23,815 nucleotides of DNA, from assembly GCA_039208875.1 (NCBI GenBank), contig JBCCQU010000001.1, forward strand, positions 1 to 23,815. The letters run 5' to 3'. The position numbers and the translations under genes are program-made. The stretch comes from Planctomycetota bacterium. GTDB lineage: Bacteria; Planctomycetota; Phycisphaerae; Phycisphaerales; UBA1924. Under the pieces are notes generated by a model that was given only the letters and a program-made list of their open reading frames with translations, was not told where the DNA came from and made no database searches. Shown piece after piece: positions 746 to 14,880 of the stretch. How positions within the stretch are numbered: position 1 is the stretch's first letter; each line of letters starts with the position of its first letter.

Positions 746-1923
746 TCGCGTTGTACGACTGGCTCAGCCCGTGGATCGACGACATCAAACTGCTGCGGTT
801 TGTGCAGGTGATCGATCAGCTCGAGTTCCGCGCATTACTCGCCGCTGTGCTGTCGCTCATCATCGTGCTGGCCTTTGGACGTCGCGTGATCGCGATGCTC
901 GTGAAGTACAAAGTCGGCGATGCTGGCCTGACCGATGTCGATGCGCTGGCTCGCGTGGCCGAGGCCAAAGCCAACACGCCGACCATGGGCGGCCTGCTGA
1001 TCGCGGGCTCGATTCTCATCTCCACGCTGCTGCTGGCCGACCTCGGCGTGCGATGGGTGCAGATCGGTGTGGTCGTTGTGCTCTGGACCGCCGCGCTGGG
1101 GGCGGTCGACGACTATCTCAAGCTCACAGCAGCCCGCCGCAGCGGCTCGCGTCAGGGCTTGCATAGCTGGGAGAAGCTGGTCTTTCAGCTCGGCCTCGGT
1201 GTGATCGTCGGCTACTTCGCGTATCGCGCCGGCCTCGGCGACAGCGGCCCCGATGCAGCACCTTCGCTCGCGCACGCGCTCAATCTGCCGCTGCAAAAGA
1301 CGTACGAGTCGTCGCTCACCGGCGTGGTATCGCAGAGCGTGATCTATCTGTCGCTGCCCGTGTATCTCGTTATCGCTGCGCTCATGTTGGCAGGCATGTC
1401 GAACGCGGTCAACATCACCGACGGCATGGACGGACTCGCAGCCGGCATCGGCACCGTCGTGGCGTTCGGCTTGCTCGTGCTCGCGCTCATCGCGGGCGAG
1501 CTTCGATGGGCGCAGACGCTGCTGGTGCCGCACGTCAGCTTCAGCGGGGAGCTTGCTGTCATGGCGGGCGCGATGGCCGGCGCGTGCCTCGGCTTCCTGT
1601 GGTTCAATGCATCGCCGGCCAATGTCTTCATGGGCGATACCGGCTCGCTGTGCATCGGCGGGCTCATCGGCTATCTCGCGGTCGTCATCCGGCAAGAGTT
1701 TGTCACGCTGCTCATGTGCGGCGTCTTCCTGTTCGAGATCGCGTCGGTCGTCATCCAGGTCGCGTACTTCCGCGCGACCGGCGGCAAGCGCATCTTCAAG
1801 TGTGCGCCCGTGCACCATCACTTCCACATGGTCGGTTGGGCTGAGCAAAAGATCGTGGCCCGCGCGTGGATCGCAACGGTTTTGCTCGTGATCGTCGCGC
1901 TCGCGACGCTCAAGGCTCGTTAG
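739..1923 (+). CDS. mraY: phospho-N-acetylmuramoyl-pentapeptide transferase (MraY)
   Basis: ORF 694..1923. I prefer the ATG at 739 (MLIALYDWLSPW...), which overlaps the murF stop (ATGCTGA). The protein is polytopic and hydrophobic, and its C-terminal ...KCAPVHHHFHMVGWAEQKIV... matches the MraY HHH signature. Confidence 0.9.
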   Translation: MLIALYDWLSPWIDDIKLLRFVQVIDQLEFRALLAAVLSLIIVLAFGRRVIAMLVKYKVGDAGLTDVDALARVAEAKANTPTMGGLLIAGSILISTLLLADLGVRWVQIGVVVVLWTAALGAVDDYLKLTAARRSGSRQGLHSWEKLVFQLGLGVIVGYFAYRAGLGDSGPDAAPSLAHALNLPLQKTYESSLTGVVSQSVIYLSLPVYLVIAALMLAGMSNAVNITDGMDGLAAGIGTVVAFGLLVLALIAGELRWAQTLLVPHVSFSGELAVMAGAMAGACLGFLWFNASPANVFMGDTGSLCIGGLIGYLAVVIRQEFVTLLMCGVFLFEIASVVIQVAYFRATGGKRIFKCAPVHHHFHMVGWAEQKIVARAWIATVLLVIVALATLKAR

Positions 1924-3200
1924 TCGGCTGCGGGATCGATTAGCAGCAGCGGACGCACGAGCATCGGCCGATCTTGCACCGGGCCGTTCTCGTTCTCGCC
2001 GATCTCGATGACGAGCTCTCGGCCGCGCTCGCCGACGCCCGGCAGCACCGCTGCGCATTCGATCCGCGGCGACTCGCCGTCGACACTTCCCGACCAGACT
2101 TCCTGTGGCTCAAGCCCCGGACGGTTAACTAGCACACGAACCGTCGGATCGCCCCACACCCGCATCGAGTCGGGCAACACGATGCCGGTGGCAAATCGCG
2201 TCGCACCGGCGGGCAGGCTCCACGCGGCCGACATCGGGCCCGGCATGTCGATACGCGCGCCGAGCGGTGAACTGCTCTCGATCACCCGCGGCTGCGCAGT
2301 CCATCGGCGCTGAGCTCGTGCGCTCACCTCCACAAGCTCAAGCTCCGCGAGCGGCACGAGCGACTGGGCATCGAACACCAGCGTGCGCACGTCGCCGAGT
2401 GAAACCCGCCGCGTGATCGATGTCTCGCTCTCGCTTTCGCCGGTCTCGGAACTGTTGTGCAGCGACGGCGCGATCGATAGCACACCGGCGTCGACGAGTG
2501 TCGCGGCCGCGAGCTCGAGCACCGAGCCGTCGGCCAGCGTGATGACCGTGCCGGTGGCAGGCGTGAGCGGATTGGCGAGCGTTGCCCGCGTGACGCGCGA
2601 CGCTTCGACGCGTGTCTCGCTGTCTGTGGTTTCGACGATGAGTCGCAGCGGCGGGCCTTGGTCGAGCAGCGTGAAGCCGCGCAGCGTGTCGCCGTTGGCA
2701 AGACGCACGACATCGTCATCGATCGCGCCCGCGGGTTCTCTCCGCGACGGCGGCGAGATACCCGGGGCGAAGCTCCGCACCTCTTCGAGCGGCAGCGTGA
2801 TCTCGCCGAAGCCGACGTGCGACCAGCGCAGGGATTCCTCGTCGCTCGCCGGTTCGTCGGAGACCGAGCCCAGCAGCACCTGGCCGTCGGTGAGCACGAG
2901 CTCGCCGCCCGAGCCGCGAAGCCATCGGCTCTCCGCGAGGCCGAAGGCGGACGCCCGTTCGATCGCAGTATCAGGGTCGACGATGATGGCTGCGACTTCC
3001 GCCAATGTGCGATCACGCCGTAAGCCAAGATCATCGACAAAGCTGATTCGCTCAGCATCGAGCGAGATCAACTCGATCGGTCGGCTGCGCAGCTGCGCAT
3101 CAATCAGCACGACGCCGTCCGATGCACACGCCGATGCGGTCATCGTGCCAATCACAGCAGCGGGCAATGACAGTCGTGATGCGCTCTTGTGCATGGTCAC
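1920..3200 (-). CDS. hypothetical secreted/periplasmic protein (last gene of the long minus-strand operon)
   Basis: 426-aa ORF. The start is GTG at 3200, overlapping the upstream stop as GTGA, or ATG at 3194. The N-terminus MHKSASRLSLPAAVIGTMTASAC looks like a signal or lipoprotein peptide. No domain recognised. Its stop shares TTAG with the convergent mraY stop. Confidence 0.5.
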   Translation of the reverse strand: MTMHKSASRLSLPAAVIGTMTASACASDGVVLIDAQLRSRPIELISLDAERISFVDDLGLRRDRTLAEVAAIIVDPDTAIERASAFGLAESRWLRGSGGELVLTDGQVLLGSVSDEPASDEESLRWSHVGFGEITLPLEEVRSFAPGISPPSRREPAGAIDDDVVRLANGDTLRGFTLLDQGPPLRLIVETTDSETRVEASRVTRATLANPLTPATGTVITLADGSVLELAAATLVDAGVLSIAPSLHNSSETGESESETSITRRVSLGDVRTLVFDAQSLVPLAELELVEVSARAQRRWTAQPRVIESSSPLGARIDMPGPMSAAWSLPAGATRFATGIVLPDSMRVWGDPTVRVLVNRPGLEPQEVWSGSVDGESPRIECAAVLPGVGERGRELVIEIGENENGPVQDRPMLVRPLLLIDPAAD

Positions 3201-4321
3201 TTCTGGAAGATCGGCAGATAACGCTTGGGCATTTGCAGAATAATCAGCGCCATGGCTGTGCCATATTCGTCGCCGACGGAGCGATCACGCCAGTTGCCGT
3301 CCTCGAGTTGCAGCGACAGCATGTGTTCGGAGATCGCGGTCCACCACGAGGCCCAGTCGTCGCCGCCCGCGAGGAACATCGCTTGCACCGAGTAGTAGTG
3401 GCCGTACCAGTAGTGCGCGTTCGAGCTCTCGCTGCCCGGCGTGGCTGTGCGGTTGAGATACGCGAGGCCGTCGTCGAGCGCTTCGTCTTCGTACACACCC
3501 GCGTATTGCAGACTCGCGACGCCCGCAGCGGTGCGCGGCCATGCGCTCTGCCCGCCCTGCGCCTGATACTTGAAGCCGCCATCGACGTTCTGGCAGCGCC
3601 GCACATACGCGACCGCATCATCGATGACCTGCTTATCGACCTCGATGCCGGCGTTGCGCGCCGCACGCAAAGCCATGATCTGGCAGATCGTCACGCTGAC
3701 GTCGGCGTCATACGGGACGGGGTTGTATCGCCAGCCGCCCTCGTCGTTCTGCGAGCGCTCGATGAGCCGGACCGCTTTGACGAGTGCTTCATACGCGCGG
3801 TCGGCCTGTGGCGTACCTTCTTCGCCGAGCATGCCGTAGATCTCGCCGAGGAACAGCGTCGCGAAGCCGTGGCCGTACATCGGCCCGTTGTCGGCGTCGG
3901 CCGCGATCAGCCCGCTCTCGGTCGCGTTATCCAGCACGTACTCGAGGGCCTTCTCGACGAGGTCGCCGTACTCGCCGCGACCGGGCGTGTGGCCGTCAGC
4001 CATAAACGCGATGGCTGCGAGCGATGTCACCGCGACGTTTCGACCGAAGCGTCCGCCGCCGAACGCGCCGTCCGCGTCTTGGCGATCGGCGAGCCACACC
4101 ATGCCCGCGGTCACCGCTGCATCGATTTCAGCATTGAGCTCGTCGGGTATCGGGTCGTTGGTTGCCGAAGTGCGCTCGGTCGTTGGAGCCTGTTGCTCGA
4201 CAACCGGCCCGGTGAAGAGGTCGCCGTCTTGTGCGCACGCCGGTGCGACCGCTCCCGCAGCCAAGCCGGCAACAACAGCGACAGCGAGCGCACGTTTGTT
4301 TGCAGCGTTGAATGCGATCAA
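3197..4321 (-). CDS. secreted prenyltransferase/squalene-oxidase repeat (terpenoid-cyclase-like alpha-alpha toroid, QW-motif) protein
   Basis: ORF track 3197..4444. I place the start at the in-frame TTG at 4321, which overlaps the upstream TGA (4318-4320) as TTGA and yields the signal peptide (M)IAFNAANKRALAVAVVAGLAAGAVAPACAQDG. Repeated QW-type motifs (NDEGGWRY, QNVDGGFKYQ, QLEDGNWRD) and an aromatic-rich repeat are typical of prenyltransferase-beta and squalene-hopene-cyclase folds. Confidence 0.65.
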   Translation of the reverse strand: MIAFNAANKRALAVAVVAGLAAGAVAPACAQDGDLFTGPVVEQQAPTTERTSATNDPIPDELNAEIDAAVTAGMVWLADRQDADGAFGGGRFGRNVAVTSLAAIAFMADGHTPGRGEYGDLVEKALEYVLDNATESGLIAADADNGPMYGHGFATLFLGEIYGMLGEEGTPQADRAYEALVKAVRLIERSQNDEGGWRYNPVPYDADVSVTICQIMALRAARNAGIEVDKQVIDDAVAYVRRCQNVDGGFKYQAQGGQSAWPRTAAGVASLQYAGVYEDEALDDGLAYLNRTATPGSESSNAHYWYGHYYSVQAMFLAGGDDWASWWTAISEHMLSLQLEDGNWRDRSVGDEYGTAMALIILQMPKRYLPIFQK

Positions 4322-5052
4322 GGCTCGGGCTCCTCCGCGAGGCGGCGGTAATACTGCTCGGTCATGCGGCGATACAGCGTGCTGAAGGTCTCGTTGGTGC
4401 CCTGCACCAGCGCGTCGCGCAATCGTGCGGGCAGGTTGCCCCACGCTGCGAGGTCCGCAGCCTCGGGATCATTCAGCGCACCATCCTGGCGGCCCGGCGG
4501 CATCGACTCCTGCTCGCCCTCACCCTGCGCCTGCTGCGATTCTTGCTGCTGGCCCTGTTGCTGTTGCGCCCGCGGCTGATTGGGCTGGCTCTGCTGTTGG
4601 CCTTGTTGCTGCTGGCCGCCTTGCTGCTGTTGCTGTTGTTGTTGCTGACGACGCTGCGCCTCATCAATAAGGTCGTCGAGCGATCGCAGGATGTCTTCCT
4701 GAATACGCTGCGTTGCGAGGCCCGCATCGCGCGACGCACCGAGCCGCGCACCCGCACGCGACATCAGATCGACCGCCCGCTCGAAGCGCTCCGGCTGCGA
4801 TCGGCCGTCTTCGCCAGCGAGCGCACGATCAACGTAGTCGTCGGCTCCTTCGTCCGCGACTTCATCGGTGCCGGGCTCCGCTTCGTCTTCGTCGAGGCCG
4901 AGAAGCTCATCGAGCCCGGGCAGCGGCTGATCGGCTGCCGGTTCTTCGGCGGGTTCTTCAGCAGGCTCGGCTTGCGGCTCCGTAGCCGGCTGAGCAGTCG
5001 CAAGCCCGGCTGCAACAACCAGCGCGAGCCACGCGGGTGCGAGCTTCGTCAT
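4318..5052 (-). CDS. secreted acidic low-complexity protein with EP/PE repeats and a long poly-Gln tract
   Basis: The ATG at 5052 overlaps the upstream TGA (ATGA). The signal peptide is MTKLAPAWLALVVAAGLATAQP. An EPQAEPAEEPAEEPAAD acidic linker is followed by QRRQQQQQQQQQGGQQQQGQQQSQPNQPRAQQQQGQQQESQQ. Confidence 0.55.
   Translation of the reverse strand: MTKLAPAWLALVVAAGLATAQPATEPQAEPAEEPAEEPAADQPLPGLDELLGLDEDEAEPGTDEVADEGADDYVDRALAGEDGRSQPERFERAVDLMSRAGARLGASRDAGLATQRIQEDILRSLDDLIDEAQRRQQQQQQQQQGGQQQQGQQQSQPNQPRAQQQQGQQQESQQAQGEGEQESMPPGRQDGALNDPEAADLAAWGNLPARLRDALVQGTNETFSTLYRRMTEQYYRRLAEEPEP
4525..4656. repeat. CAG/CAA-type trinucleotide low-complexity tract encoding poly-Gln (CTG/TTG-rich on the plus strand)
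   Basis: Plus strand ...ctgctgcgattcttgctgctggccctgttgctgttg...ttgctgctgttgctgttgttgttgctg... codes residues 133-176 of the 4318..5052 protein. Confidence 0.7.
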
Positions 5053-8000
5053 GGTGCTTCTCCTTGCTCCGGCTGCTGCGGCTGTTGCTGCTGTTGCTGC
5101 ATCTGCTGCTGTAGCACTTCGAGCAGTTGCTGACCGCGTGTCGCGAGTTCATCCTGCAACTCCGCAACATCGCCCAGCTCTTCGGTCGTGATCTCGCCCG
5201 CAGCCTCGTCGATGGCTCGCGTCAGTTCGTACGCCTCGGCCTGCATCGCCCGCAGCAAACGCAACTCCGCGATCGGCGGGATCGGTTCGTCAGCCTGTTC
5301 GCCGCCCTGCCCGCCGCCGCCGTCACCACCGCCGCCAGCCCCCTGCCCAAAGTCCTCGTCGCCCGCCTGCGGATCGGTCAGCGTCTCGACAAGCGATCGC
5401 AGCAATCGCTCGGCTGTCCGCTGCTCCCGCAGCACGCGTGCATCGACACGGCCTTCACGCATAGGCTCGGCTGCACGCTCGGTCGCTGCATCCAGGCGAT
5501 CGTGCGCGAGATCGAACATCACCGATTCCTGCAGCGCATCCGTCTCGGCTCGCAGCTCGGCCAGCTTCGTGCGCAGCGATGTCTGCACCTCGCCAAGGTC
5601 GCGCACCGTCCGCCGCGTCCGCCGGTCAAGATCCCGATCGGCAAACGCATCCGTCCGCTCGCGCAGCTCCACTTGCTCTCGCAGCGCCTCGACGTACGCC
5701 CGCCGCAGCTCGTCGCGTTCGCGTTCGTTCTCTCGCTGCTGCGCCTCCGACTGCAGCCGTTCAGCCTCGTCGCGCGCAGCGATGAGGTTATCGAGGCTTA
5801 TCTGTTCGCCTGCCCTCGCGGCGGCTGCATCGCCGAGATCGTCACGGATCGCGCGGATCGCCGACGCCTGCCCGGTCAGTGCCTGCTCCAGCGGATCGAT
5901 CACCGAAGCTGCAGCCTCCGCAAGCTCTGCCTCCACCTGATCCAGCACCGCGAGCGTGTTCGTGTTGATGCGGATCATGCCGGCGTCGAGGCCAACGAGC
6001 GCCCGGCCCGCAGCCACCGCTGCGTCGAGGTCGGCGAGCGCCTCCTCCTGCTGCGCGATGAGTGTCTCGAGCGACTCGATGACCGAGCTCAGCACACGGT
6101 CGAGCGTTTCATCGCGGTTGCGCGGCGCGCGATCGAGATCCTCCAGCATCTGCTCGATGGCTTCGAGTGCCTGCTGCTGCTCGCGTTGGGCGGTCTGCGT
6201 CTGGTTCTGCTCGATCTGCTGCGATGCCTGCTCGAGTTGTTCGCCGAGTGCCTGCTCCCGGCCGCGGGCTGCCGCTTCCGCGAGCGACGACGCCTGGCTC
6301 GGGTCGCGGCTGCGGAGATCGTCAGCGCGATCGGCCAGATCATCGATGGCTTCGCGCGCACGATCGGCCAATTCCCGTTGCCGCTCGGCCAAGCGTTCGA
6401 GTTCCGATCGCTCGGCCTGCGTCAGCTCATCCAGCGATCTGCCGGTGGTCTGCTCTGCTGCGCGTGCGGTCTCGTTCCGTAGCCTTTGCTGATCGTCGCG
6501 CAGCCGCTCCACACTCCGCCGCGCCGTCCACGCATCCTCGCCGCGATCGAGCGAGCGGATCAGCCGATCGAGCTCGTCGCGCACGCGGTCCTGCTGCTCG
6601 GCTGCCTCTTGCAATTGCTCAGCTTCTTGTGCGTCCGTTTGGTCCGCAGCGTCTTCGCCCCTCTCGTCACCGCTTTCGCCTTGCTCCGCACCGCTCGATC
6701 CCGCAGCATCGAGCCGATCCGCAGCGGTGTTCGAAGCCTGCCGAGCTTCCGAGAGCCGTTGCCCGGCTTCATCGAGCAGGCCCGCGAGCGCTTCGTCGTC
6801 GAGTTGATTCCGCTCGACGCGTTCGCTCAGCCGTTCGACAGCTTCAAGCTGAGCATCGAGTCGCGATGTCACGCCGCGCTGCGCAGCTGTGGTCTCGCGC
6901 GTGCCGCCGGTCAGCGACGCCCGCTGCGCGACGTCGGCCTGTTGTTCGTCCAGCCGCATCGCCGACCGCCGCACCGCACCCAACTCGGCCCGCAATTGCT
7001 CAGCCAGCTCGCCTTCGTCGATGATCCGAAGCCGGCGGATCGCGGACCGCGCCGGGCCATGGCCGTCGAACGCGTCGTTCGCGATCGCAGTGACCCAGAT
7101 CTCATCGCCCGGCAACAGGCCGTCCGAATCTGCCGCGACATCCGCGACCGTCAGCGTGGCTGAGACGTTCATGCGACGCGGTGTGCGCGCAGCATCACCA
7201 GCGCCCTCACCGAGCCGCTCTAGAAGGACAGTCTCGTCGCCGACCGGCTCCGGCGCAGCACCGACCGAGCCGCGATCGGGCTTGGCCACCTGTCGCACGA
7301 GCGAAAGCGAAGCCAGGCCAACATCATCCCGGGCATCGGCTTGCACGGTCACCACCGCGGTCGGCAACACCGACGCATCGCGGGCCGGCTCGATGATCAC
7401 CGCGGTCGGTACACGGTCCGGCGTGACGTCGATCGCCAGGCCGACCGGAGCGTCCGTCGTCAGCCCGAGTTCATCGGTCGGCGTGATTGTCAGCCGCACG
7501 CTTTCAGCAGCGTCCGACTCGATCACCCATTCGTTCGACGCTTCGCCATCGGCGCCCGCAGCGAAGTCGATACGCCCAACGTCGATGCCCACGCCGAGCG
7601 CCCGCGTCACAAGCTCTGTGCGCTCCGCCTCGGTCGTTGGCAACGGCAACGGCTTGTTGAACGTCGCGCGGATCGACACCGTCGACCCGGCAAGCACCGG
7701 CCCGACGACGATCTTCCGTCCGGCGGGCGATCCCGCGCCGATCAGGGCCTCACCCGTCACGAAGCCCGCTGCGTCCTCGATGTCGCTCGCGTAACTCGGC
7801 GGCGTCACGTTCACCGTCAGGCTGCTGACCTCCGGCCGGCGCGCGAGCTGCACGCTCTGCCACGAGGTCTGATCGTCGCCGCTCTCGAGCCTGTATTCCA
7901 GTCGCACATCGGCCTGCGCACGCGCCGCGGTCGTCGGCTCGATGAGTCGTTCATACAGCGTGCCGTCGCCCACCTCGCGGTCCTGCGGCGTCAGCAGCAC

Positions 8001-8954
8001 ACGCCGCTCTCGCTCCGCCCGGTCATCGACCACAACGCGATAGATGGCTGCGACCTCGGGCTCATCGCGCGGCGAACGCAGCAGCGACGCCCGCAACGGC
8101 ACCACCTCGCCGAGCGCATACACGCGGTCCTCGGTTGCATCGCTCACAGCTGTGCGCTTCGGCCACGCGATGTCCGTCCAAGGCAACAGCACCCGGCCCG
8201 CGCCGATCAGCACCGTCGTCGGCGCAGCGACCAGCAGCACCAAAGCCAACGCAACCGCGCCGCCCGCGATCGCACCGGGCCGACCCGCTGCGGTGTTGTC
8301 GAGCACGTCGCGCGCTGTCAGTGTGCGCGCGCGGGCCGCTGCATCCATCACGACGGTCGAGGCGAGCAGACGAGTCGTAGCAGCCTGCGAAGCGGTGCCC
8401 TCGCTCCCGAGCTCGACGCCCGCAGCCAGCAGGCCGGTCAGGCCTGCATCACGCGCCGCCGGGGTGCGCTCCACACGCAGGGCGAAGTCGGTCAGCGACG
8501 GCGCGAAACGCCACGCGGGAAGCACATGCCGATGCACAGCCCACCCGAGCGCAGCGACGCCGCCCAGCCACGCTGCGAACCGCAGCCACGCCGGCACCCG
8601 CACCGCGAAATCGAACAAAGCCAACGCGAACACAACGCCGAGCGTGATCGCCCCGACCCACGCCGCCGCCCGCACCAGCAGCAACAGCCGCGACCGTGCG
8701 CGCAGCGAGGCCAGCGTCGACGACAGCTCCGCAGCCAGCGTCGCGGCATCGGCAGAGGGCTCGCTCGGCTTCGGCCCGGTGATTGCCTCAGGGCTGTTCG
8801 CAGGTGTGCGATTGTCCGGCATCCGGCTTCGGCTCCATCCATGGCACGGTCCCGCGGCCGGCCTTCCTTCCATACAGCTTCGAAGCCCGCGATGTGCCCC
8901 GCGAGCCCAAACTGCTGAGAACTCCAGTTCAACCGCGCAAACCCATGGAATCAT
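5049..8954 (-). CDS. giant membrane-anchored protein: N-terminal TM helices, beta-rich repeat region, roughly 600-aa Glu/Arg/Ala/Leu coiled-coil, Gly-rich and poly-Gln C-terminus (DUF4175/TIGR02302-like architecture)
   Basis: 1301-aa ORF starting at ATG 8954, 22 nt after the upstream stop. An alternative ATG is at 8822 (MPDNRTPANSP...). Two or three hydrophobic helices (LLLLVRAAAWVGAITLGVVFALALF; AAWLGGVAALGWAV) are followed by ...FALRVERTPAARDAGL..., then VTPP/ITPTDE-type beta segments, a long charged heptad-like region, GQGAGGGGDGGGGQGG and QQQMQQQQQQPQQPEQ. The family call is from memory of the TIGR02302/DUF4175 description, not from a search. Confidence 0.6.
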   Translation of the reverse strand: MIPWVCAVELEFSAVWARGAHRGLRSCMEGRPAAGPCHGWSRSRMPDNRTPANSPEAITGPKPSEPSADAATLAAELSSTLASLRARSRLLLLVRAAAWVGAITLGVVFALALFDFAVRVPAWLRFAAWLGGVAALGWAVHRHVLPAWRFAPSLTDFALRVERTPAARDAGLTGLLAAGVELGSEGTASQAATTRLLASTVVMDAAARARTLTARDVLDNTAAGRPGAIAGGAVALALVLLVAAPTTVLIGAGRVLLPWTDIAWPKRTAVSDATEDRVYALGEVVPLRASLLRSPRDEPEVAAIYRVVVDDRAERERRVLLTPQDREVGDGTLYERLIEPTTAARAQADVRLEYRLESGDDQTSWQSVQLARRPEVSSLTVNVTPPSYASDIEDAAGFVTGEALIGAGSPAGRKIVVGPVLAGSTVSIRATFNKPLPLPTTEAERTELVTRALGVGIDVGRIDFAAGADGEASNEWVIESDAAESVRLTITPTDELGLTTDAPVGLAIDVTPDRVPTAVIIEPARDASVLPTAVVTVQADARDDVGLASLSLVRQVAKPDRGSVGAAPEPVGDETVLLERLGEGAGDAARTPRRMNVSATLTVADVAADSDGLLPGDEIWVTAIANDAFDGHGPARSAIRRLRIIDEGELAEQLRAELGAVRRSAMRLDEQQADVAQRASLTGGTRETTAAQRGVTSRLDAQLEAVERLSERVERNQLDDEALAGLLDEAGQRLSEARQASNTAADRLDAAGSSGAEQGESGDERGEDAADQTDAQEAEQLQEAAEQQDRVRDELDRLIRSLDRGEDAWTARRSVERLRDDQQRLRNETARAAEQTTGRSLDELTQAERSELERLAERQRELADRAREAIDDLADRADDLRSRDPSQASSLAEAAARGREQALGEQLEQASQQIEQNQTQTAQREQQQALEAIEQMLEDLDRAPRNRDETLDRVLSSVIESLETLIAQQEEALADLDAAVAAGRALVGLDAGMIRINTNTLAVLDQVEAELAEAAASVIDPLEQALTGQASAIRAIRDDLGDAAAARAGEQISLDNLIAARDEAERLQSEAQQRENERERDELRRAYVEALREQVELRERTDAFADRDLDRRTRRTVRDLGEVQTSLRTKLAELRAETDALQESVMFDLAHDRLDAATERAAEPMREGRVDARVLREQRTAERLLRSLVETLTDPQAGDEDFGQGAGGGGDGGGGQGGEQADEPIPPIAELRLLRAMQAEAYELTRAIDEAAGEITTEELGDVAELQDELATRGQQLLEVLQQQMQQQQQQPQQPEQGEAP
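5064..5111. repeat. second CTG/TTG-rich tract encoding the poly-Gln C-terminus of the 1301-aa protein
   Basis: Plus strand ggctgctgcggctgttgctgctgttgctgcatctgctgctg lies about 400 bp from the first tract, in the adjacent gene. Confidence 0.65.
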
Positions 8955-8976
8955 TGGGTGTTGCGGCGGTGCTGCG

Positions 8977-11379
8977 TCAGATCAGCTTGATGAGTCTCCG
9001 TCCGATCCATTCCGTCGCCAGCAGCACGAACGTCAGCAGCAGCACGATCGGCTTGTCCCACAGCGGTTCGACGGTCGGGGCTGCGTCGATGATGAGTTCG
9101 CGATTCGGCAGCCGGGCCGGCAGATTGGCAAGGTCGGCCACCGGCACCACCTCGCCATCGGTGCGGGCAGCCAGCGAGGCCAGCAGAGCATGGTCCGCCT
9201 CGGGCCGGCGCAGTTCCTCGTCCGGCAGCGCCACCTCGACCGCCGCGGTCACATCGCCGGCCGGCAGCAGCGGATCGCTCGCGGTCAGCACATAGCTCCC
9301 AGCCGCTGCGGGCAGCCATGTCGTCGCGTAGCTGCCGGTGTCGTCGCTCGTATCCGTGCGCACGAGCGTGAGCTGCGTCACCGCGTCCGGCTCATTCGGA
9401 TCGTTCACCGTCACCTCGATGGTGCCCGGCGCGACATCGATCAGCGATTGATCCACGAGCCGCAGCGTGACTTGCACCGGCTGATCGATGACAGCCCGTG
9501 TCGGGGCGGCTTCCAGCACAGCAGCCTTGCCCGTGCGCGCAAGACTGCCACGCCCGGCCAATCGCACGAGCGGCAGCCAGAAGCGTTCCGGCAGCGCCTC
9601 GCCGCGGCCGTAGCGCCAGCGCCAGATCTCATCCGTCGCGACGTAGATGCTGCGACCCGAGCCGTAGCGCATGGTCAGCACCGCGGGCGTTGCCGAGTCA
9701 ATGGCTGCGGGATTGTCGCCCGGTCGCCACGTGCCCTCGGGTATCGCCGACGCCAGCGTTTCCGCCGCCGGCTTGAGCCGATCGGGATCAACGCGTTGCA
9801 CGCCACGCAGTCGGCTCCAGCCGGTTGCCGGGTCGAGCAATCGCTCGGGCCAAGGCTGGTCGGCTGTCTCACCCAGCCGCAGCACGCCGAGACGATCGGC
9901 GGCGTCCGTGCGCGCGAGCGTGATGGCGCCGTTCCAACTCGGCAGCCCGGGCGAGCCATCGATGCCGCGGGCTGTGAACGGCAACAAATCGGCGAGCGGC
10001 GTGCCGGCGAAGGTCGCGGGTGTCGAGGCCGGCCCGCCGATCCACACCAGGCCGGCTCCGCGATCCGCGACGTGCGCGCGCAGTTGCTCGAGCTGCTCCA
10101 GCCCGAAAAGTTCAGCCCGCACATCACCGAGCACGATCACGTCAAACTCGGCCCACTCTTCGGGCGAACGCGGCAGCCTCGCCACCGCAACATCGCCCTC
10201 TTGGATGTAGCTGCGGTTGGGCGCGAGCAGCAGCGACGACGACCGCACGCTCGACTCGCGCAGCAGGATGTTCTTGAGATAGCGGTACGTCCAACGCGGA
10301 TAGCCATCGACATACAGCACACGCAGCGGCTGATCGACGATGTCGAGCTCGAACGGCTTGCTGTTGTTGGATTCGATCAGATCCGTGCGCGCGGTGACCA
10401 CACGCACTGCCCATGTCGCGCCCTGCTCGGCGTCGGTCGGCTGCGTCAGCAGCGTGATCGCTTCGTCCGCTGTGCGCACGACTTGGTCGTCCAGCACGAT
10501 GCCGGTCGAGGTATCGACAAGCTCGACGCGCACGCCCTCAGCCATCATCGCGGCGACGGCGTCTTCGTCGCCGAGTGTGCCGAGCGAAACCGAGATCGGC
10601 ACGACGTCATCGACGAACACCGCCGGCGGCGCATCGACCGAAGCCACGGCGAGATCGGGCGGCGCGGTCGGGCTGCCCAGCGGCACCGGATACACGCCGA
10701 TGCCCTCTGCCTGCAGCCGCTGCAGCGTTTCGCGGCTCGGCTCCGCTGCCGATCGACCATCGGTCAGCAGCACGAATCCCGACACGGGCCGCGCTGCAAC
10801 GCGACGGAACGCCTGCGCGAGCGACGCGTTGAGGTCGGTCCGCAGGCCGTCAGCGTCACCGAGATCGAGCCGGACGGACTGCGAGGATGCGCTCTCGTCG
10901 AGCGGGCCCGCGAGTTCGAACACGCCGCTATCGAAGCCGAGCCACAGCACGTTGCGTTCGCTGGCTGCCTGTCGCCACGCCGGCCACGATGCGCGCACGG
11001 CCTCGCGCAGTTGTTCATCACGGCTCACGCGCGCATCGGCATCGAACGAGCCGCTGGCATCGGGGATGGACATCGACGCGGAGCGGTCGGCCAGCACCAC
11101 GATCCAGTCGCGCTCGGTGCGTTGGTTGTCCTGCACGAGCTGCGGCCCGAGCGCGAGCGCGAGCAACGCAAGAATCGTCAGCGTGCGCACGCCGGCGAGC
11201 GCGATGCGCGGCTCGCGCGCACCTTCGAGCCTGCGATACGTCGCCCAAGCCGCGAGCGAGGCGATGATGCCGAGCACGATCCACACCGCGGGTGATAGCG
11301 GCGTGGCCCAGTCGAGCCGGGCCGGGCCGTCCGCGTCGAAGCGTTCAACGCCGAAGAGCTGATAGAGCAGTTCGGTCAT
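8977..11379 (-). CDS. BatA/BatB-like membrane protein with a VWA (MIDAS DxSxS) domain and a class-I glutamine-amidotransferase-like (DUF4159-like) domain
   Basis: The ATG at 11379 overlaps the upstream TGA (ATGA). N-terminal TM helices (AVWIVLGIIASLAAWATY; TLTILALLALALGP) are followed by DWIVVLADRSASMS (MIDAS). ...LRVLYVDGYPRWTYRYLKNILLRE...FDVIVLGDV...GAGLVWIGG resembles the GATase1-like module of Bat-type proteins. There is a C-terminal TM anchor (IVLLLTFVLLATEWIG). Confidence 0.65.
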   Translation of the reverse strand: MTELLYQLFGVERFDADGPARLDWATPLSPAVWIVLGIIASLAAWATYRRLEGAREPRIALAGVRTLTILALLALALGPQLVQDNQRTERDWIVVLADRSASMSIPDASGSFDADARVSRDEQLREAVRASWPAWRQAASERNVLWLGFDSGVFELAGPLDESASSQSVRLDLGDADGLRTDLNASLAQAFRRVAARPVSGFVLLTDGRSAAEPSRETLQRLQAEGIGVYPVPLGSPTAPPDLAVASVDAPPAVFVDDVVPISVSLGTLGDEDAVAAMMAEGVRVELVDTSTGIVLDDQVVRTADEAITLLTQPTDAEQGATWAVRVVTARTDLIESNNSKPFELDIVDQPLRVLYVDGYPRWTYRYLKNILLRESSVRSSSLLLAPNRSYIQEGDVAVARLPRSPEEWAEFDVIVLGDVRAELFGLEQLEQLRAHVADRGAGLVWIGGPASTPATFAGTPLADLLPFTARGIDGSPGLPSWNGAITLARTDAADRLGVLRLGETADQPWPERLLDPATGWSRLRGVQRVDPDRLKPAAETLASAIPEGTWRPGDNPAAIDSATPAVLTMRYGSGRSIYVATDEIWRWRYGRGEALPERFWLPLVRLAGRGSLARTGKAAVLEAAPTRAVIDQPVQVTLRLVDQSLIDVAPGTIEVTVNDPNEPDAVTQLTLVRTDTSDDTGSYATTWLPAAAGSYVLTASDPLLPAGDVTAAVEVALPDEELRRPEADHALLASLAARTDGEVVPVADLANLPARLPNRELIIDAAPTVEPLWDKPIVLLLTFVLLATEWIGRRLIKLI

Positions 11380-13643
11380 GCAGCGATCCCCGGCGTGCTG
11401 TCGCTCGATGTCTTGGCGTGGCTGAAGAAGCGGGCGAGGATCATCTCGATCGCAGCGAAGGCGAGCGCCGCGGCGAAGAGCACAGCGGACAGCCCCGCGC
11501 CGGCGCCATCGCCGAGCCCGGCTTCGAGCGTCGAGCTTCGGTCGCCGCCTGTGCGCGTGCGATTCGTTGTTGTGTCATCGAGCCAGATGGGGCTCGCGCC
11601 CGCGAAGGCTGAGGTAAGCCATGCCTCGACGCTGTCGCGAGGTTGCGTGGTGGTGTCGCTGCCGCGGGTATCGGGATTGATCGCGATGGCTGCCGTGCGT
11701 CGGCCTCGCTCGTCCTCGATGGCGTACGCCGCGGCATCGCGGATCGGTTCGGTCGTGGTCGCATCGAGCACCGCACCGGCGTCGGTTTCGTCGAGCCGGC
11801 GGAGCGTCGCTGCGTTGGGTGGCAGGGTCGGCGCGTTGCCCGCGATGATCGATGCCACGCCGGCGGAGACACCCGCACCCTGCCGCGTGAGCTCTTGCAA
11901 CAGCGGCACGACGAGCGGCGTCGCGGGCAGGTTCGACCAATCGACATCGAGCGCGACCGAGCTCGTGATGAGCAGGCCCCCGGTGCGAGATGTGCCGGTC
12001 GATGCGCGCACGGCGGTGAGCAGTGGCTGGCCGTCGCTTGTCGCAAGCAGTATTTTGACAGGTTGGCCTTGCGCAGCGGTGATCGGCAGCCGGCGCGCGA
12101 TGGTGACGGGCCGCGCGAGTTCGCTGAGCTCTGCGCGGATCAGCCCGAGCAGGTCGTCACCGGTTGTCGGTTGTTCGATGCCGATGGTGAGGCTTTCGAC
12201 ATCCTCGGCTTCGCTGGCGATCTCGATCGGCGGCTCGCTGTCGAAGGCGGCTGCCAGCATGGCGTCGGGCCAGAGGTGCACCGCGATGCCGTTGGGCGGG
12301 AAGACGATGACGAGGCCGCCGCGGCTGAGCATCTCGGCGACGCGCGACCAGCCGGCAGCGGAGACTTGATCGGGGCGTGTGATGATGAGTCCGTCGAGCG
12401 TGGCGAGGTCGGCGGTGTCGAGCGAAGCGGGGTCGAGATCGGTCGTGGTCACCGCACCGATGGGCCGACCGAAGGCATCCCGATCAGGCCGGAGCGCGAG
12501 CCGCACCCAGTCGGCGCCCTCGTAGCTATCAAGCCGCGGACGCGAGCCGAAGCGGCGAAGGCCCGCGACACCGAGGCGGAGCTCCGGCCGAAGCCGAACG
12601 ACCGCCCGGCGCGTGTTGTCTGCTTCGAGCGCGTCGCGATCGATGGAGGCTTCGAGCACAGCAGCGGGATCGTCGCCGGCGCTGACGAGGTCTGCCGGAT
12701 TGATCGAGAGCGTCGTGCTGGCTTCGGTCTGCCCCGGCTGCCAGCGCACGGTCGCGCGGGCTTCGCTCGCTCGGCCCAGCACGCGCACACGCACGGTTGT
12801 TGTCGCCGCTTCGCTTTCACCGGAGCGTGCAAGCGCGATGCGCACAGCCGTTGCACTATCCGCGATCGGCCCCGCGCCGGGATCATCGCCCGAGCCGGTG
12901 AGCAGCAGGTCGCGGAGCGGGCGCACATCGGTGATGGCGACGTTGCCGACGTCGGCATCGGGCGGAGCGATGGCAACAAGCGATGTCGGCGGCGACGGCG
13001 GCGGCGTGACCGGTGTGCCGGCTTCGACTGAGCCGCTGCGCGATTCGCTGAGCCACGCGACCATCGCTCGGCCCTCGCCGGGCTCGGGGAGATGATCGGT
13101 GAGCAGCGCGACAGCAGAGGCCGGCGACGTGCGCGCAACGGTTGGCTCCAGCGTTTGCAGCACGCGACGCACGGCGGCGAGATCGCCCGACGGCGGCAGC
13201 ACCACAGCCGAGGCCGGCTCCGACAAGGTGACGACCGCAGCCCGGTCGCCGCGATCTTCGTTGAGTTCTTCGAGCAACTCGATCGCGCGCTCGCGATTGG
13301 CTGCGAATGCCGAGGCTTCGCCGACCTGCACGCCGGAGGTCAGGCTGTCGTCGAGCATCAGGAACAGCGTGACCGGCGCCGACCCTGAGACGCCCGCAGC
13401 GGCGCCGAGCAACGGTCGGCCGAGCGCGAGCGCGAGGAAAAGAACCACCAGGCAGCGTGCGGTGAGCAGGATGATCTGCTCGAGCGTGACGCGCCTTTGT
13501 TGGCGGCGATAAGCCTCCATCAGGAAGCGCATCGCGGCCCAACGCACGGGCTGACGACGCCGGCGCATGAGGAGGTGGATGATGATCGGCAAAGCCACGG
13601 CCAGCAGTCCCGCAGCCAGCAACGCCGGGTTGACAAAGCTCAC
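11376..13643 (-). CDS. aerotolerance-regulator N-terminal (BatA_N / TIGR02226 double-transmembrane) domain protein with a VWA-like region and a C-terminal TM anchor
   Basis: GTG start at 13643, 33 nt after the DUF58 stop. The N-terminus MSFVNPALLAAGLLAVALPIIIHLLMRRRRQP...LLTARCLVVLFLALALGRP is the canonical BatA_N double-TM motif. It is followed by TLFLMLDDSLTSG (VWA-like) and ends with the TM anchor LSAVLFAAALAFAAIEMIL. Confidence 0.75.
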   Translation of the reverse strand: MSFVNPALLAAGLLAVALPIIIHLLMRRRRQPVRWAAMRFLMEAYRRQQRRVTLEQIILLTARCLVVLFLALALGRPLLGAAAGVSGSAPVTLFLMLDDSLTSGVQVGEASAFAANRERAIELLEELNEDRGDRAAVVTLSEPASAVVLPPSGDLAAVRRVLQTLEPTVARTSPASAVALLTDHLPEPGEGRAMVAWLSESRSGSVEAGTPVTPPPSPPTSLVAIAPPDADVGNVAITDVRPLRDLLLTGSGDDPGAGPIADSATAVRIALARSGESEAATTTVRVRVLGRASEARATVRWQPGQTEASTTLSINPADLVSAGDDPAAVLEASIDRDALEADNTRRAVVRLRPELRLGVAGLRRFGSRPRLDSYEGADWVRLALRPDRDAFGRPIGAVTTTDLDPASLDTADLATLDGLIITRPDQVSAAGWSRVAEMLSRGGLVIVFPPNGIAVHLWPDAMLAAAFDSEPPIEIASEAEDVESLTIGIEQPTTGDDLLGLIRAELSELARPVTIARRLPITAAQGQPVKILLATSDGQPLLTAVRASTGTSRTGGLLITSSVALDVDWSNLPATPLVVPLLQELTRQGAGVSAGVASIIAGNAPTLPPNAATLRRLDETDAGAVLDATTTEPIRDAAAYAIEDERGRRTAAIAINPDTRGSDTTTQPRDSVEAWLTSAFAGASPIWLDDTTTNRTRTGGDRSSTLEAGLGDGAGAGLSAVLFAAALAFAAIEMILARFFSHAKTSSDSTPGIAA

Positions 13644-13676
13644 GCCCGGCCCCCGATCGGTTCGCAGCGCGGTGCA

Positions 13677-14738
13677 TCAGCCATACTTGCTCCGCTTGAT
13701 CTGGGCGTTGCGGCGGGCGACGAACGACGCGAGCGGCGGGCCCAGCCAGTCGTACGTATCAACGAGCTGGTAGTCGAAGCCGAAGCGTCGCATGATGCGT
13801 TCGACTTCTTCGCGGTGGTTCTCAAACGCTTCGAGATATGCGGAGCGAACGCTGCGTGGGTCGAGCCGGATGGCTTCTTCGCCCTCGAGCCCAACGAACG
13901 GCGCAGCCTCGCGCAGATTGAACGTGCGCTCGGCGTGGTCGACGACCTGGAAGGCCATGAGATCGTGGCCGCGGTGCCGCACGCGCGCGACGGCTGCGCG
14001 GATGCGCTCCGGGTCGTCGTAGAAGTCACTGATCAGCACGAGAAGGCAGCGGTTGTTGACGTTGGCGAGCGCTTGATCGACCGCTCGGCCCATGTCGGTC
14101 GGCTTATCGACCGGGTGCGTCGCGAGTGCGCCGACGATCTGTCGCCACGTTGCGTTGGCGCCGGAGCGTCGCACAGCAGCGCGGATCTCGTCGGCGAACA
14201 CATACAGCCCGGCGCGGTCGCCCTGCCGAAGCGTGATGTACGCGAGTGCTGCTGCGAATCCTGTCGCGTGGTCGAACTTGCTCCAGTACGTGCGGCCGTC
14301 GCGGCTGGCCTTGCGGCCCGCGCCAGATGCCTCGGAAAACGATCGGCTGCCGTAGTCCATCGAGCCGGAGGAATCGACGAGCACGATGAGGTCGAGGTTG
14401 GTCTCTTGCTGGTACTGCTTGAGGTGCAGCTTGTCGGAGCGTGCGAAGACCTTCCAATCGAGGTGGCGGATGTCGTCGCCCGCGACGTACGGCCGGTGCT
14501 GGGCAAACTCGACGCTGAAGCCCTGGTACGGCGAGCGGTGCTGGCCGGTGTTGATGCCCTCGACGATCATCTTTGCGCGCAGCTCAAACGTCTTGAGCCG
14601 GCTGAGCGTCTGCGGGTGCAGATAGAGCGAGGCGTCTTCTTCCGGCGGCAGCACGCGGTTGCTGTCGGCACGGCCACCCGCTTGGCCACCCGCTTGGCCC
14701 CCGGGGTTGGTCACGGATTTGGGGTCGGGCTCGGGCAT
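13677..14738 (-). CDS. DUF58 family protein (MoxR-associated VWA-like partner)
   Basis: ATG at 14738. ...LKTFELRAKMIVEGINTGQHRSPYQGFSVEFAQHRPYVAGDDIRHLDWKVFARSDKLHLKQYQQE...IVLVDSSGSMDYG... matches the DUF58 core (HRSxxxGxSxEFxxxRxYxxGDDxRxIDW) plus a VWA-like DxSxS. Confidence 0.8.
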   Translation of the reverse strand: MPEPDPKSVTNPGGQAGGQAGGRADSNRVLPPEEDASLYLHPQTLSRLKTFELRAKMIVEGINTGQHRSPYQGFSVEFAQHRPYVAGDDIRHLDWKVFARSDKLHLKQYQQETNLDLIVLVDSSGSMDYGSRSFSEASGAGRKASRDGRTYWSKFDHATGFAAALAYITLRQGDRAGLYVFADEIRAAVRRSGANATWRQIVGALATHPVDKPTDMGRAVDQALANVNNRCLLVLISDFYDDPERIRAAVARVRHRGHDLMAFQVVDHAERTFNLREAAPFVGLEGEEAIRLDPRSVRSAYLEAFENHREEVERIMRRFGFDYQLVDTYDWLGPPLASFVARRNAQIKRSKYG

Positions 14739-14783
14739 GCTGTGATGGTACCGGCCGCAGCGGAACGGTTGCGGCTAAGACAA

Positions 14784-14811
14784 CAGCCCGGTCCGCGACG
14801 GGGCCGGGCTG
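14784..14811 (-). terminator. candidate intrinsic terminator downstream of the EF-hand gene
   Basis: Perfect 8-bp GC-rich stem cagcccgg/ccgggctg with a 12-nt loop. On the minus strand it is followed by TTGTCTT, only moderately U-rich. It sits in the 142-bp gap between the EF-hand stop and the DUF58 start. Confidence 0.3.
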
Positions 14812-14880
14812 CCGTCAGGCGCCGGGGTCAGCGTCCCGGCGGGGGTTGGGGTCTGGGAGGTTGCTGGCGGGTGGATTCGT

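Follow-up and report, generated by a model that had tools for sequence, protein, structure and literature searches.

We analysed a stretch of 23,815 nucleotides from a Planctomycetota bacterium (Phycisphaerales; UBA1924), which comprises positions 1-23,815 of the forward strand of contig JBCCQU010000001.1 in assembly GCA_039208875.1 and is referred to below as the window. As a preliminary description of this DNA had proposed, positions 1920-14738 contain seven consecutive open reading frames that all lie on the minus strand, which we designate G1 through G7 (Table 1).

Table 1. Features of the G1-G7 cluster and its immediate surroundings in the window
Feature	Positions	Strand	Description	Basis or remark
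EF-hand gene	14881..15900	-	Possible accessory gene, encoding a predicted secreted protein with EF-hand repeats	142 nt upstream of G1, same strand
G1	13677..14738	-	Predicted cytoplasmic DUF58 protein, 353 aa, VWA-like fold	Pfam DUF58
G2	11376..13643	-	Predicted inner-membrane protein, 755 aa	BatA_N double-TM hairpin, VWA_2-like domain, C-terminal TM helix
G3	8977..11379	-	Predicted inner-membrane protein, 800 aa	Two N-terminal TM helices, C-terminal TM helix
Intergenic gap	8823..8976	-	Separates block 1 from block 2	G4 start at 8822
G4	5049..8822	-	Predicted membrane-anchored giant, 1257 aa	TM segments, composition profile
G5	4318..5052	-	Predicted secreted acidic protein, 244 aa	Alignment of 31 orthologs
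G6	3197..4321	-	Predicted exported protein, 374 aa, TTG start, a single (alpha/alpha)6 toroid domain	QW-like repeats
G7	1920..3200	-	Predicted secreted protein, 426 aa	Repeated xDGxxLxG motifs, weakly NPCBM-like C-terminal domain

The first two products fall into the families that had been expected of them. G1 matches Pfam DUF58 (PF01882; E 3.8e-41, 141 bits, cutoff 23.4) along with VWA_CoxE and VWA_2, retains an intact DxSxS MIDAS motif (D122-S124-S126), and is 51-67% identical to its orthologs; no hydrophobic segment was found in it. G2 matches BatA_N (PF07584; E 5.1e-16), VWA_2 (27.7 bits, cutoff 27), and NCBIfam TIGR02226 (2.7e-21), and its transmembrane (TM) segments at residues 8-26, 57-75, and 718-736 bound a large region that is predicted to be periplasmic. 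G3 had been called a VWA- and GATase1-like protein. Searches of Pfam returned no significant match to VWA, GATase1, or DUF4159, yet both folds are present in its AlphaFold model (pLDDT 87), where the TM pair is followed by a VWA-like domain, a beta-sandwich, a noncatalytic GATase1-like alpha/beta domain, a second beta-sandwich, and the C-terminal TM helix. The MIDAS columns of G3 (D98, S100, S102, T181, and D207) are invariant in the ortholog alignment. Foldseek matches for G3 in the PDB include ANTXR2, an ADC synthase, and three chains of yeast oligosaccharyltransferase (OST), namely 6c26_B, 7oci_G, and 6ezn_G, which we take to be Wbp1, the OST48 homologue. Wbp1 is a noncatalytic scaffold subunit with a GATase1-like alpha/beta domain, a beta-sandwich, and one C-terminal TM helix. 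The OST chains are the best PDB matches of the C-terminal half of G3 (alpha/beta, beta-sandwich, and TM anchor; E ~1e-8), with a likeness at the level of fold only (10-12% identity, low global query TM-score of 0.16-0.19), and nothing suggests common ancestry with OST or a role in glycosylation.

A four-gene MoxR operon of Rhizobium leguminosarum, cmdA-D (RL3499-RL3502), was reportedly described by Vanderlinde et al. in 2011 (cited in PMC5700661), and the MoxR operon of S. meliloti (locus L091) is presumably its equivalent. In the S. meliloti operon, genes for MoxR and DUF58 precede one for a BatA_N/DUF4159 protein and an ORF for a GATase1-like membrane protein, the equivalent of G3, after which the operon stops. 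When profiles were compared with hhalign, G2 aligned with the first ~540 aa of the BatA_N/DUF4159 protein encoded by the third gene (97.7%, E 1.9e-12), and G3 aligned moderately well over 411 columns with the product of the fourth (75%, E 2.6e-5), an ORF that the sequence record examined apparently contains in split or frameshifted form and that, like G3, has a weak match to DUF7408. What operons of the cmdA-D type share with G1-G3 is a DUF58 protein, a BatA_N double-TM protein, and, less certainly, a GATase1-like membrane protein with a C-terminal TM helix. They differ in that MoxR heads the alphaproteobacterial operon, as it does in some Phycisphaerales relatives, whereas the window has none; the third alphaproteobacterial gene encodes a C-terminal DUF4159 domain, which Pfam does not detect in G2; G3 possesses an extra VWA domain with its MIDAS intact; and G4-G7 are four added genes that have no alphaproteobacterial counterpart. 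In planctomycetes, G1-G3 probably correspond to this four-gene operon of MoxR and DUF58 in alphaproteobacteria, which is related to Bat. The assignment of the first four genes to a Bat module in the preliminary description was thus one gene off, as only G1-G3 map onto the four-gene operon, and G4 groups with G5-G7.

A further point of comparison is the BatI (Bacteroides aerotolerance) operon, which Tang et al. are said to have described in 1999. Together with its spirochaete relatives (Borrelia bb0170-bb0176; PMC5700661), it shares with the cluster MoxR-associated DUF58 and BatA_N/VWA proteins of the inner membrane, with the VWA domain on the periplasmic side. The VWA domain of a Borrelia BatA-type protein faces the periplasm, and mutants of the Rhizobium cmd operon are summarized in the same article as having envelope and morphology defects (PMC5700661). 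No match to the TPR (BatC), BatD, or SH3 (BatE) components was found in G1-G7, with G3, G4, G5, and G7 searched to E <= 10. Conversely, the Bat operon lacks the coiled-coil giant, the (alpha/alpha)6 toroid, and the NPCBM-like protein represented by G4, G6, and G7.

The cluster had earlier been described as a Bat/MoxR-type operon. Among its relatives, six loci (L019, L033, L040, L052, L065, and L082) have a MoxR gene (AAA_3, E ~1e-63) immediately upstream of G1, and MoxR is also encoded next to the DUF58 gene in locus L087 and on the P0288 contig. The window itself has no MoxR gene: a tblastn search with the MoxR of L019 returned none, and the gene upstream of G1 encodes the EF-hand protein rather than a MoxR AAA+ ATPase (AAA_3). 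With no MoxR in the 23.8-kb window, dependence of this particular operon on the ATPase is assumed only.

As a block, G4-G7 matches no described family. After its N-terminal TM helices, G4 continues with a beta-rich region (~210-600) and a helical or coiled-coil region of ~600 aa, which is proline-poor and acidic and includes a Gly spacer along with a Q-rich tail. Its only domain match is a weak one to Big_7, and its family includes 3331 clusters at 50% identity (E <= 1e-30). We reject the earlier description of G4 as DUF4175-like (PF13779), given that G4 has no match to this family at E <= 10 and none in NCBIfam; among 36 orthologs a single match was obtained (E 0.0079, scoring far short of the gathering cutoff), and none among six G4-G5 fusion proteins. 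The earlier description of G5 as a secreted, acidic, poly-Q protein agrees with its content of 16% Q and 19% D+E and with the signal-like segment at its N-terminus. The predicted signal peptide is followed by LDELLGL, a helical TQRxQEDIxRKLD motif, a linker rich in Q and S, and a motif conserved at the C-terminus, WGxLPxRVR...YYRRLAEE, and no Pfam family was found for the protein. Because the last 200 aa of a 1490-aa G4 homolog (P0268) are 47% identical to G5, the two genes are fused there, and such fusions of G5 to G4 occur in some genomes. G7 is the least conserved member of the cluster, with 21-40% identity among 29 aligned orthologs and 26-29% identity to its orthologs in L001 and L004. 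While the G7 of the window does not match NPCBM (PF08305), 3 of 30 orthologs do so weakly (best E 0.001), and a precomputed NPCBM match exists for the equivalent gene on the P0288 contig.

The junctions between the genes reveal how the cluster is organized. Four of the six are 4-bp start/stop overlaps, rather than the five that had been claimed. Those of G2/G3 (ATGA, 11376-11379), G4/G5 (ATGA, 5049-5052), and G5/G6 (TTGA, 4318-4321) are present as first reported, and the one between G6 and G7 (GTGA, 3197-3200) is present provided that G7 starts at GTG 3200 and not at ATG 3194; another overlap in the preliminary description ("21732-style") lies outside the cluster, between two genes that are unrelated to it. 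The other two junctions are gapped. G1 and G2 are separated by 33 nt, and G3 and G4 by 22 nt if the longest ORF is used or by 154 nt if G4 starts at 8822. The latter start is that of the NCBI-annotated product and agrees with the lengths of orthologs, which makes G4 a protein of 1257 aa instead of the 1301 aa given previously. Among related loci, the overlap is kept in 72 of 77 at G2/G3, 41 of 48 at G4/G5, and 40 of 44 at G5/G6, with a candidate overlap in 23 of 48 at G6/G7. Only the G3/G4 junction is without overlap throughout (0 of 54 loci; the gap has a median of 125 nt), and it is also where the cluster is broken in 16 of 68 loci (~24%), in which unrelated genes come after G3. At least one genome (L090) carries the G4-G7 block without G1-G3. 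In the window, the gap between G3 and G4 has no Rfam match, and a stable fold was not found (z = -0.7). Based on the absence of overlap, the length of the gap, and the split loci, the cluster is two translationally coupled blocks, G1-G3 and G4-G7. The notion of a translationally coupled seven-gene unit holds for most of the junctions, but not for the cluster as one uniformly coupled whole.

Despite this internal division, the arrangement is widely maintained. The seven-gene order was found in 48 of 68 assessable Phycisphaerales loci or genomes, and two lineages that are much more distant also have it. G1 and G2 precede G3 in all 66 of 66 loci, and G4-G7 follow G3 in 48 of 68, with four more truncated. 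An eight-gene order (MoxR-DUF58-BatA-G3-G4-G5-G6-G7) is complete in lineages with a G4 identity of only 25-30%. The neighborhood comparison proposed in the preliminary description thus shows the arrangement to be kept, and the fact that dozens of genomes have it in common, together with the pattern of overlaps, goes beyond chance. The earlier view of a translationally coupled Bat/MoxR-type operon is supported to the extent that this is a real and conserved envelope operon of the MoxR/DUF58/BatA class in which coupling prevails. The same recurrence supports the terpene-cyclase-fold protein (G6) and the Q-rich secreted protein (G5) as true conserved members and not chance neighbors, and the label of "passengers" is misleading, as G6 is conserved like DUF58 and far more than G2-G5 and G7. 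The arrangement had been thought undescribed; in agreement with this, we found no description of it in the searchable literature.

We consider it probable that G1-G7 constitute a two-module cell-envelope operon of Phycisphaerales, in which a first module of the widespread, though poorly understood, MoxR-DUF58-BatA_N type is combined with a second, lineage-specific module. An alternative, possible but rather doubtful, is that two independent systems happen to be adjacent, that is, a self-contained MoxR/DUF58/BatA unit (G1-G3) and an unrelated periplasmic complex (G4-G7) that is driven by its own promoter in the G3-G4 gap, with their adjacency reflecting inherited order. Such independence would fit the nonoverlapping G3/G4 junction and its median gap of 125 nt, the 16 loci with unrelated genes after G3, the solitary G4-G7 block, and the alphaproteobacterial operon that ends with the equivalent of G3. 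Yet, the adjacency persists where G4 is 25-30% identical and the flanking genes are entirely different, and across genomes the flanks vary on both sides of G1-G7 while the internal order remains constant. Since the modules are apart in 24% of genomes, they may be able to work independently.

G6 bears on what the second module might do. It has QW repeats on an (alpha/alpha)6 barrel and matches both Prenyltrans (33.7 bits, cutoff 26.5) and SQHop_cyclase_C (27.1 bits, cutoff 26.1), which confirms the prenyltransferase/squalene-cyclase fold that had been recognized in it. Its identity across relatives (58-72%) is the highest in block 2 and on par with that of DUF58, and D205, D207, C213, C243, H151, and H303 are invariant, residues of the kinds that make up the Zn-binding Asp/Cys/His triad of protein prenyltransferase beta subunits. 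It is 13-19% identical to class II terpene cyclases, prenyltransferase beta subunits, and other (alpha/alpha)6 toroids; among the proteins compared with it, YPO2471 of Yersinia pestis (PDB 7tem) is likewise an exported, uncharacterized, single-domain toroid. An alpha-2-macroglobulin or complement thioester domain was also considered, but the CxEQ thioester motif was not found in G6. Given its fold, G6 could be an active periplasmic terpenoid cyclase or prenyltransferase, with the operon making or modifying an envelope isoprenoid lipid, an explanation that we view as unlikely. Compared to class II terpene cyclases, G6 is single-domain, predicted to be periplasmic, and devoid of DxDD, a motif (searched as D.D[DE]) that is absent from 39 of 40 members of its family. 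Furthermore, Pfam detects no protein prenyltransferase alpha subunit (PPTA) in the operon. The model of all 374 aa is a single 12-helix barrel without the double-barrel (beta-gamma) architecture; because single-barrel cyclases such as MstE exist, this feature on its own does not place G6 outside the cyclase family. G6 is apparently a noncatalytic protein with the fold of terpene cyclases.

It is very improbable that the cluster is a conflict or defense system resembling the MoxR-vWA-beta-propeller ternary systems: MoxR proteins of related loci do match Pfam bpMoxR (E ~1e-11), but they match AAA_3 far more strongly (E ~1e-63), PADLOC models match none of the seven proteins, no beta-propeller, effector, or nuclease domain is present in the cluster, and species-level genomes carry it as one locus with housekeeping-like conservation (at least 585) and with the core genes murF, mraY, and dnaB as neighbors.

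Most likely, the two-module operon encodes a MoxR-serviced periplasmic scaffold that is anchored in the inner membrane. With the topology predicted from hydrophobicity and the positive-inside rule only, module 1 would consist of a cytoplasmic DUF58/VWA adaptor (G1) and two inner-membrane proteins (G2 and G3), each of which would have a short basic loop in the cytoplasm and a large periplasmic part made up of VWA, beta-sandwich, and noncatalytic GATase1-like domains. The MoxR AAA+ ATPase, the usual head of such operons, would be encoded elsewhere in the genome. Module 2 would contribute the coiled-coil G4, its detachable acidic C-terminal partner G5, the toroid G6, and G7 with its putative glycan-binding domain. 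From the cytoplasm, MoxR and DUF58 could act on G2 and G3 through the conserved loops of these two proteins and in this way assemble or remodel the scaffold. The MIDAS site of G3 may capture acidic partners, for example, G5 or the tail of G4, and this capture could position G6 and G7 as ligand-binding subunits, with glycan or polyprenyl-linked ligands, for the maintenance of the envelope.

A more specific form of this proposal can be envisioned, although we would give it little credence. Modules 1 and 2 would form a Phycisphaerae-specific, MoxR-powered periplasmic machine with an anchor in the inner membrane, in which G6 would bind a cell-wall intermediate, either polyprenyl-linked or glycan, and G7 would bind a glycan. 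The machine would have a role in the growth or division of the envelope, and the lineage, to our knowledge, has no FtsZ. In about 22 of the 48 loci, G7 convergently abuts murF-mraY. If the specific proposal were true, this abutment would reflect a functional link to the synthesis of peptidoglycan precursors.

Lastly, the EF-hand gene upstream of G1, whose start we set at Met53 of the ORF, matches the Pfam families EF-hand_7, EF-hand_1, EF-hand_6, and EF-hand_5. Similar EF-hand proteins are encoded on the same strand and no more than ~250 nt upstream of G1 in six other loci (L024, L037, L043, L060, L064, and L080).

Our analysis points to a cluster of two coupled gene blocks, joined in most loci but not in all. 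Seven consecutive minus-strand ORFs, numbered G1 to G7 in the order of transcription, fill positions 1920-14738 of the window, which belongs to a metagenome-assembled contig and has a G+C content of ~67%. G3, G4, G5, and G7 are annotated as encoding hypothetical proteins. The products of G3, G4, and G6 are identical to NCBI proteins, the TTG start of G6 agrees with the NCBI product, and the G4 start at 8822 is that of the NCBI annotation and is consistent with orthologs of ~1200 aa. The preliminary description had 4-bp overlaps at the last five junctions. When read directly, the sequence contains such overlaps at only four of six junctions, and the one placed at 21732 belongs to another gene pair, which encodes an alpha/beta-hydrolase fusion protein and a radical-SAM protein.

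Genes of the cluster and its flanks, with the junction to the next gene in the window and the share of loci, across genomes, where a candidate 4-bp overlap in the proper frame occurs at that junction
Gene	Position	Strand	Product or content	Junction to next gene	Overlap candidate across loci
G1	13677-14738	-	353 aa	33-nt gap	22/72
G2	11376-13643	-	755 aa	ATGA overlap	72/77
G3	8977-11379	-	800 aa	154-nt gap; 22 nt with longest G4 ORF	0/54; median distance 125 nt
G4	5049-8822; longest ORF reaches 8954	-	1257 aa	ATGA overlap	41/48
G5	4318-5052	-	244 aa	TTGA overlap	40/44
G6	3197-4321	-	374 aa, TTG start	GTGA overlap; 2-nt gap with ATG 3194	23/48
G7	1920-3200	-	426 aa		
murF (C-terminal part) and mraY	80-1923	+			
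EF-hand gene	14881-15900	-	secreted EF-hand repeat protein		
Hydrolase-domain gene	19030-21735	-	901 aa		
Radical-SAM gene	21732-22871	-			

The gene order is conserved well beyond this contig. In three contigs reached via G6 homologs, all seven genes occur in identical order amid other flanking genes, with ortholog identities of 64-67% for G1, 63-65% for G6, 41-42% for G3, 38-40% for G5, 33-39% for G4, 30-35% for G2, and 26-29% for G7. Relatives of G6 itself number in the thousands; among the nearest 120, identity is 61-72%, and all that carry a name belong to Phycisphaerales. A scan with the G3 alignment, taking one genome per species, returned at least 585 genomes with a relative. Among the best 80, nearly all of which are Phycisphaerales/Phycisphaeraceae MAGs, G1 and G2 precede G3 in 66 of 66 loci. 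The expectation of a conserved neighborhood was borne out for the second block as well, since G4 to G7 follow G3 in 48 of 68 assessable loci, and in four more the contig ends inside or after G4. One typical Phycisphaerales-type seven-gene cluster (L076) carries the label "uncultured Isosphaeraceae bacterium"; this bin may be mislabelled or chimeric.

The main rival explanation is that G1-G3 and G4-G7 are independent neighbors. In its favor, unrelated genes follow G3 in the remaining 16 of 68 loci, and in all 16 the break falls at the G3/G4 junction, the same place as the gap in the window. In addition, one locus (L090) contains G4-G5-G6-G7 with no G1-G3 upstream. Together with the distribution of overlaps, these loci are why we describe two blocks rather than one. 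Yet, the adjacency of the blocks has been kept at deep divergence, which argues against independence. In locus L087, for example, identity is still 58% for G6 and 51% for G1.

For the G3-G4 gap, a regulatory RNA or structured element was considered and rejected, as there was no Rfam match there or elsewhere in the window and the fold z-score was -0.7. The intergenic sequence is conserved among very close relatives only. A consensus scan of the window found no sigma-70-like sites, and terminator-like sites at background level, an outcome that is not informative for a planctomycete.

The first block corresponds to a known module. Pfam and NCBIfam searches supported G1 as a DUF58 protein and G2 as BatA_N/TIGR02226 with VWA_2. 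For G3, the proposed VWA- and GATase1-like folds are present in an AlphaFold model (mean pLDDT 87), but no significant Pfam family was recovered; by sequence, DUF4159 and GATase1 were both missed, with a weak DUF7408 match at most. From the N terminus, two helices of the model lead into a VWA-like domain; next come two beta-sandwiches with a Rossmann-type domain between them, and then a C-terminal helix. The MIDAS residues D98, S100, S102, T181, and D207 are invariant among orthologs. Because the alignment contains no invariant Cys, the GATase1-like domain is taken to be non-catalytic. The top PDB matches in Foldseek are three yeast OST chains, presumably Wbp1/OST48, along with ANTXR2 and an aminodeoxychorismate synthase.

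Searching plasmid and chromid records with MoxR, we reached a Sinorhizobium meliloti locus (L091) encoding MoxR, DUF58, a 937-aa BatA_N + DUF4159 protein, and a fourth ORF with weak GATase1_like and DUF7408 matches. We take this operon to be the Rhizobium "broadly conserved operon RL3499-RL3502" (cmdA-D). Envelope and morphology defects are described for Rhizobium cmdA-D mutants in PMC5700661. In hhalign comparisons, the G2 profile matched residues 1 to ~540 of the third gene product (97.7%, E 1.9e-12), while the G3 profile matched the fourth ORF (75%, E 2.6e-5) over 411 columns that include the C-terminal TM helix. With G2 and G3 matching the third and fourth genes, it is G1-G3, and not the first four genes as had been proposed, that correspond to the known module. 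Unlike the Bat operon, G1-G7 lack the TPR, BatD, and SH3 components. The fourth S. meliloti gene (13663-15731, CP090106.1) is absent from the PLSDB gene table and reads as two ORFs of 197 and 492 aa with a 4-bp overlap, and so represents two coupled genes or else a pseudogene with a frameshift.

MoxR is absent from the window, and in this genome it is encoded elsewhere or on another contig. In six related loci (L019, L033, L040, L052, L065, and L082), a gene for an AAA_3 MoxR ATPase precedes G1 on its strand at a distance of 4-61 nt. Two distant G4 homologs (P0283, 30% identical; P0288, 25%) both lie in an eight-gene array of MoxR, DUF58, BatA, G3-like, G4-like, and G5-like genes, a faint SQHop_cyclase gene, and a G7-like gene, the last with an NPCBM match on the P0288 contig. 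Since MoxR heads related and distant arrays alike, the ancestral cluster probably included it.

The second block encodes less familiar proteins. No significant family was found for G4, G5, or G7, nor for G3, even in searches at E <= 10. G4 has hydrophobic N-terminal helices, a beta-rich middle, and then an acidic, proline-poor helical region of ~600 aa. Its proposed assignment to DUF4175 failed, as neither G4 nor any of six G4-G5 fusion proteins matched that family in Pfam, 35 of 36 orthologs did not match it either, and NCBIfam returned nothing. When 1.84 billion representatives were searched with a G4 profile, the best 150 matches were full-length orthologs only, a result that cannot reveal remote families. 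Orthologs of G5 share a signal peptide, an LDELLGL motif, a helical segment, a Q-/S-/K-rich linker, and a WGxLP...YYRRLAEE tail; the poly-Q of G5 itself is not conserved. G4 and G5 are a single protein of 1430-1500 aa in four loci (L015, L039, L073, and L077) and in proteins P0249, P0263, P0265, and P0268, and G5 is 47% identical to the C terminus of such homologs. Elsewhere the two genes are unfused and overlap by 4 bp, and G5 then carries a signal peptide of its own. By implication of the fusion, G4 and G5 act together, and most of G4 is on the periplasmic side. Finally, G7 is poorly conserved, with a weakly NPCBM-like C-terminal end.

The description of G6 as a prenyltransferase/squalene-cyclase protein holds in part. 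Prenyltrans and SQHop_cyclase_C were above the Pfam cutoff, though weak, but the catalytic motif is absent. The AlphaFold model (mean pLDDT 85) is a single 12-helix barrel, and the HMMER match to squalene-hopene cyclase is confined to the QW repeats. In Foldseek, GH76 mannanases, epimerases, and complement thioester domains rank closely behind. A catalytic cyclase was rejected for the missing motif (no DxD[DE] in 39 of 40 family members), and a thioester domain for the lack of CxEQ in G6. Conserved blocks take in H151, D205, D207, C213, C243, H303, and many aromatics, a pattern suggestive of a constrained pocket or of a surface that contacts several partners. The annotation "terpene cyclase/prenyltransferase" is corrected here to an exported, probably non-catalytic toroid. 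In locus L053, an ORF directly upstream of G1 (5421-6647, +) has a weak BLAST match to G6 (56 bits) and no Pfam family; it may encode a divergent second toroid protein.

MoxR/DUF58/BatA operons rank with the most widespread bacterial gene clusters of uncharacterized molecular function, and their mutants have envelope, morphology, or stress phenotypes. To our knowledge, no client is known. Here, the conserved core is linked to four further proteins, predicted to be periplasmic, across at least one order and at least 585 species-level genomes. An operon of this type with these extra genes was not found in the searchable literature, in line with the preliminary description. G4-G7 are concrete candidates for the role of MoxR-module client or output, one of them being extremely conserved and having a ligand-binding fold, and this linkage renders the function of the module testable. 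The cluster also defines three unannotated protein families (G3, G4+G5, and G7). For the G1-G7 system, our data show the component genes, the folds, the synteny, the pattern of coupling, and the G4-G5 fusion, and from these we infer complex formation, a topology, and a ligand. In the proposed mechanism, a cytoplasmic MoxR/DUF58 engine would act via G2 and G3 on a periplasmic scaffold of G4-G7, in which ligands would be bound by G6 and G7. We consider this mechanism most likely because MoxR AAA+ proteins and their VWA partners are described as assembly or remodelling chaperones in reviews cited in PMC5700661 and PMC3893208. A defense system was dismissed, as none of the seven proteins has a match among the PADLOC models.

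The surroundings of the cluster are partly recurrent. The murF-mraY pair is convergent with G7, and the stop codons of mraY and G7 overlap at 1920-1923, leaving no space for a terminator. A convergent mraY lies ~0-170 nt from the G7 stop in ~22 of 48 complete loci; the upstream flank is variable. The EF-hand gene, which shares the strand of G1 and lies 142 nt upstream of it, has a XopAW-like NCBIfam match below cutoff. In L024, L037, L043, L060, L064, and L080, a similar protein is encoded at this position, a hint that the VWA/MIDAS proteins may have a calcium-binding accessory. Farther upstream and unrelated to the operon, the 901-aa protein has an alpha/beta-hydrolase N-terminal domain followed by a long, unassigned membrane-rich and C-terminal remainder, and its gene overlaps by ATGA the radical-SAM gene upstream of it, which by our reading is RlmN-like.
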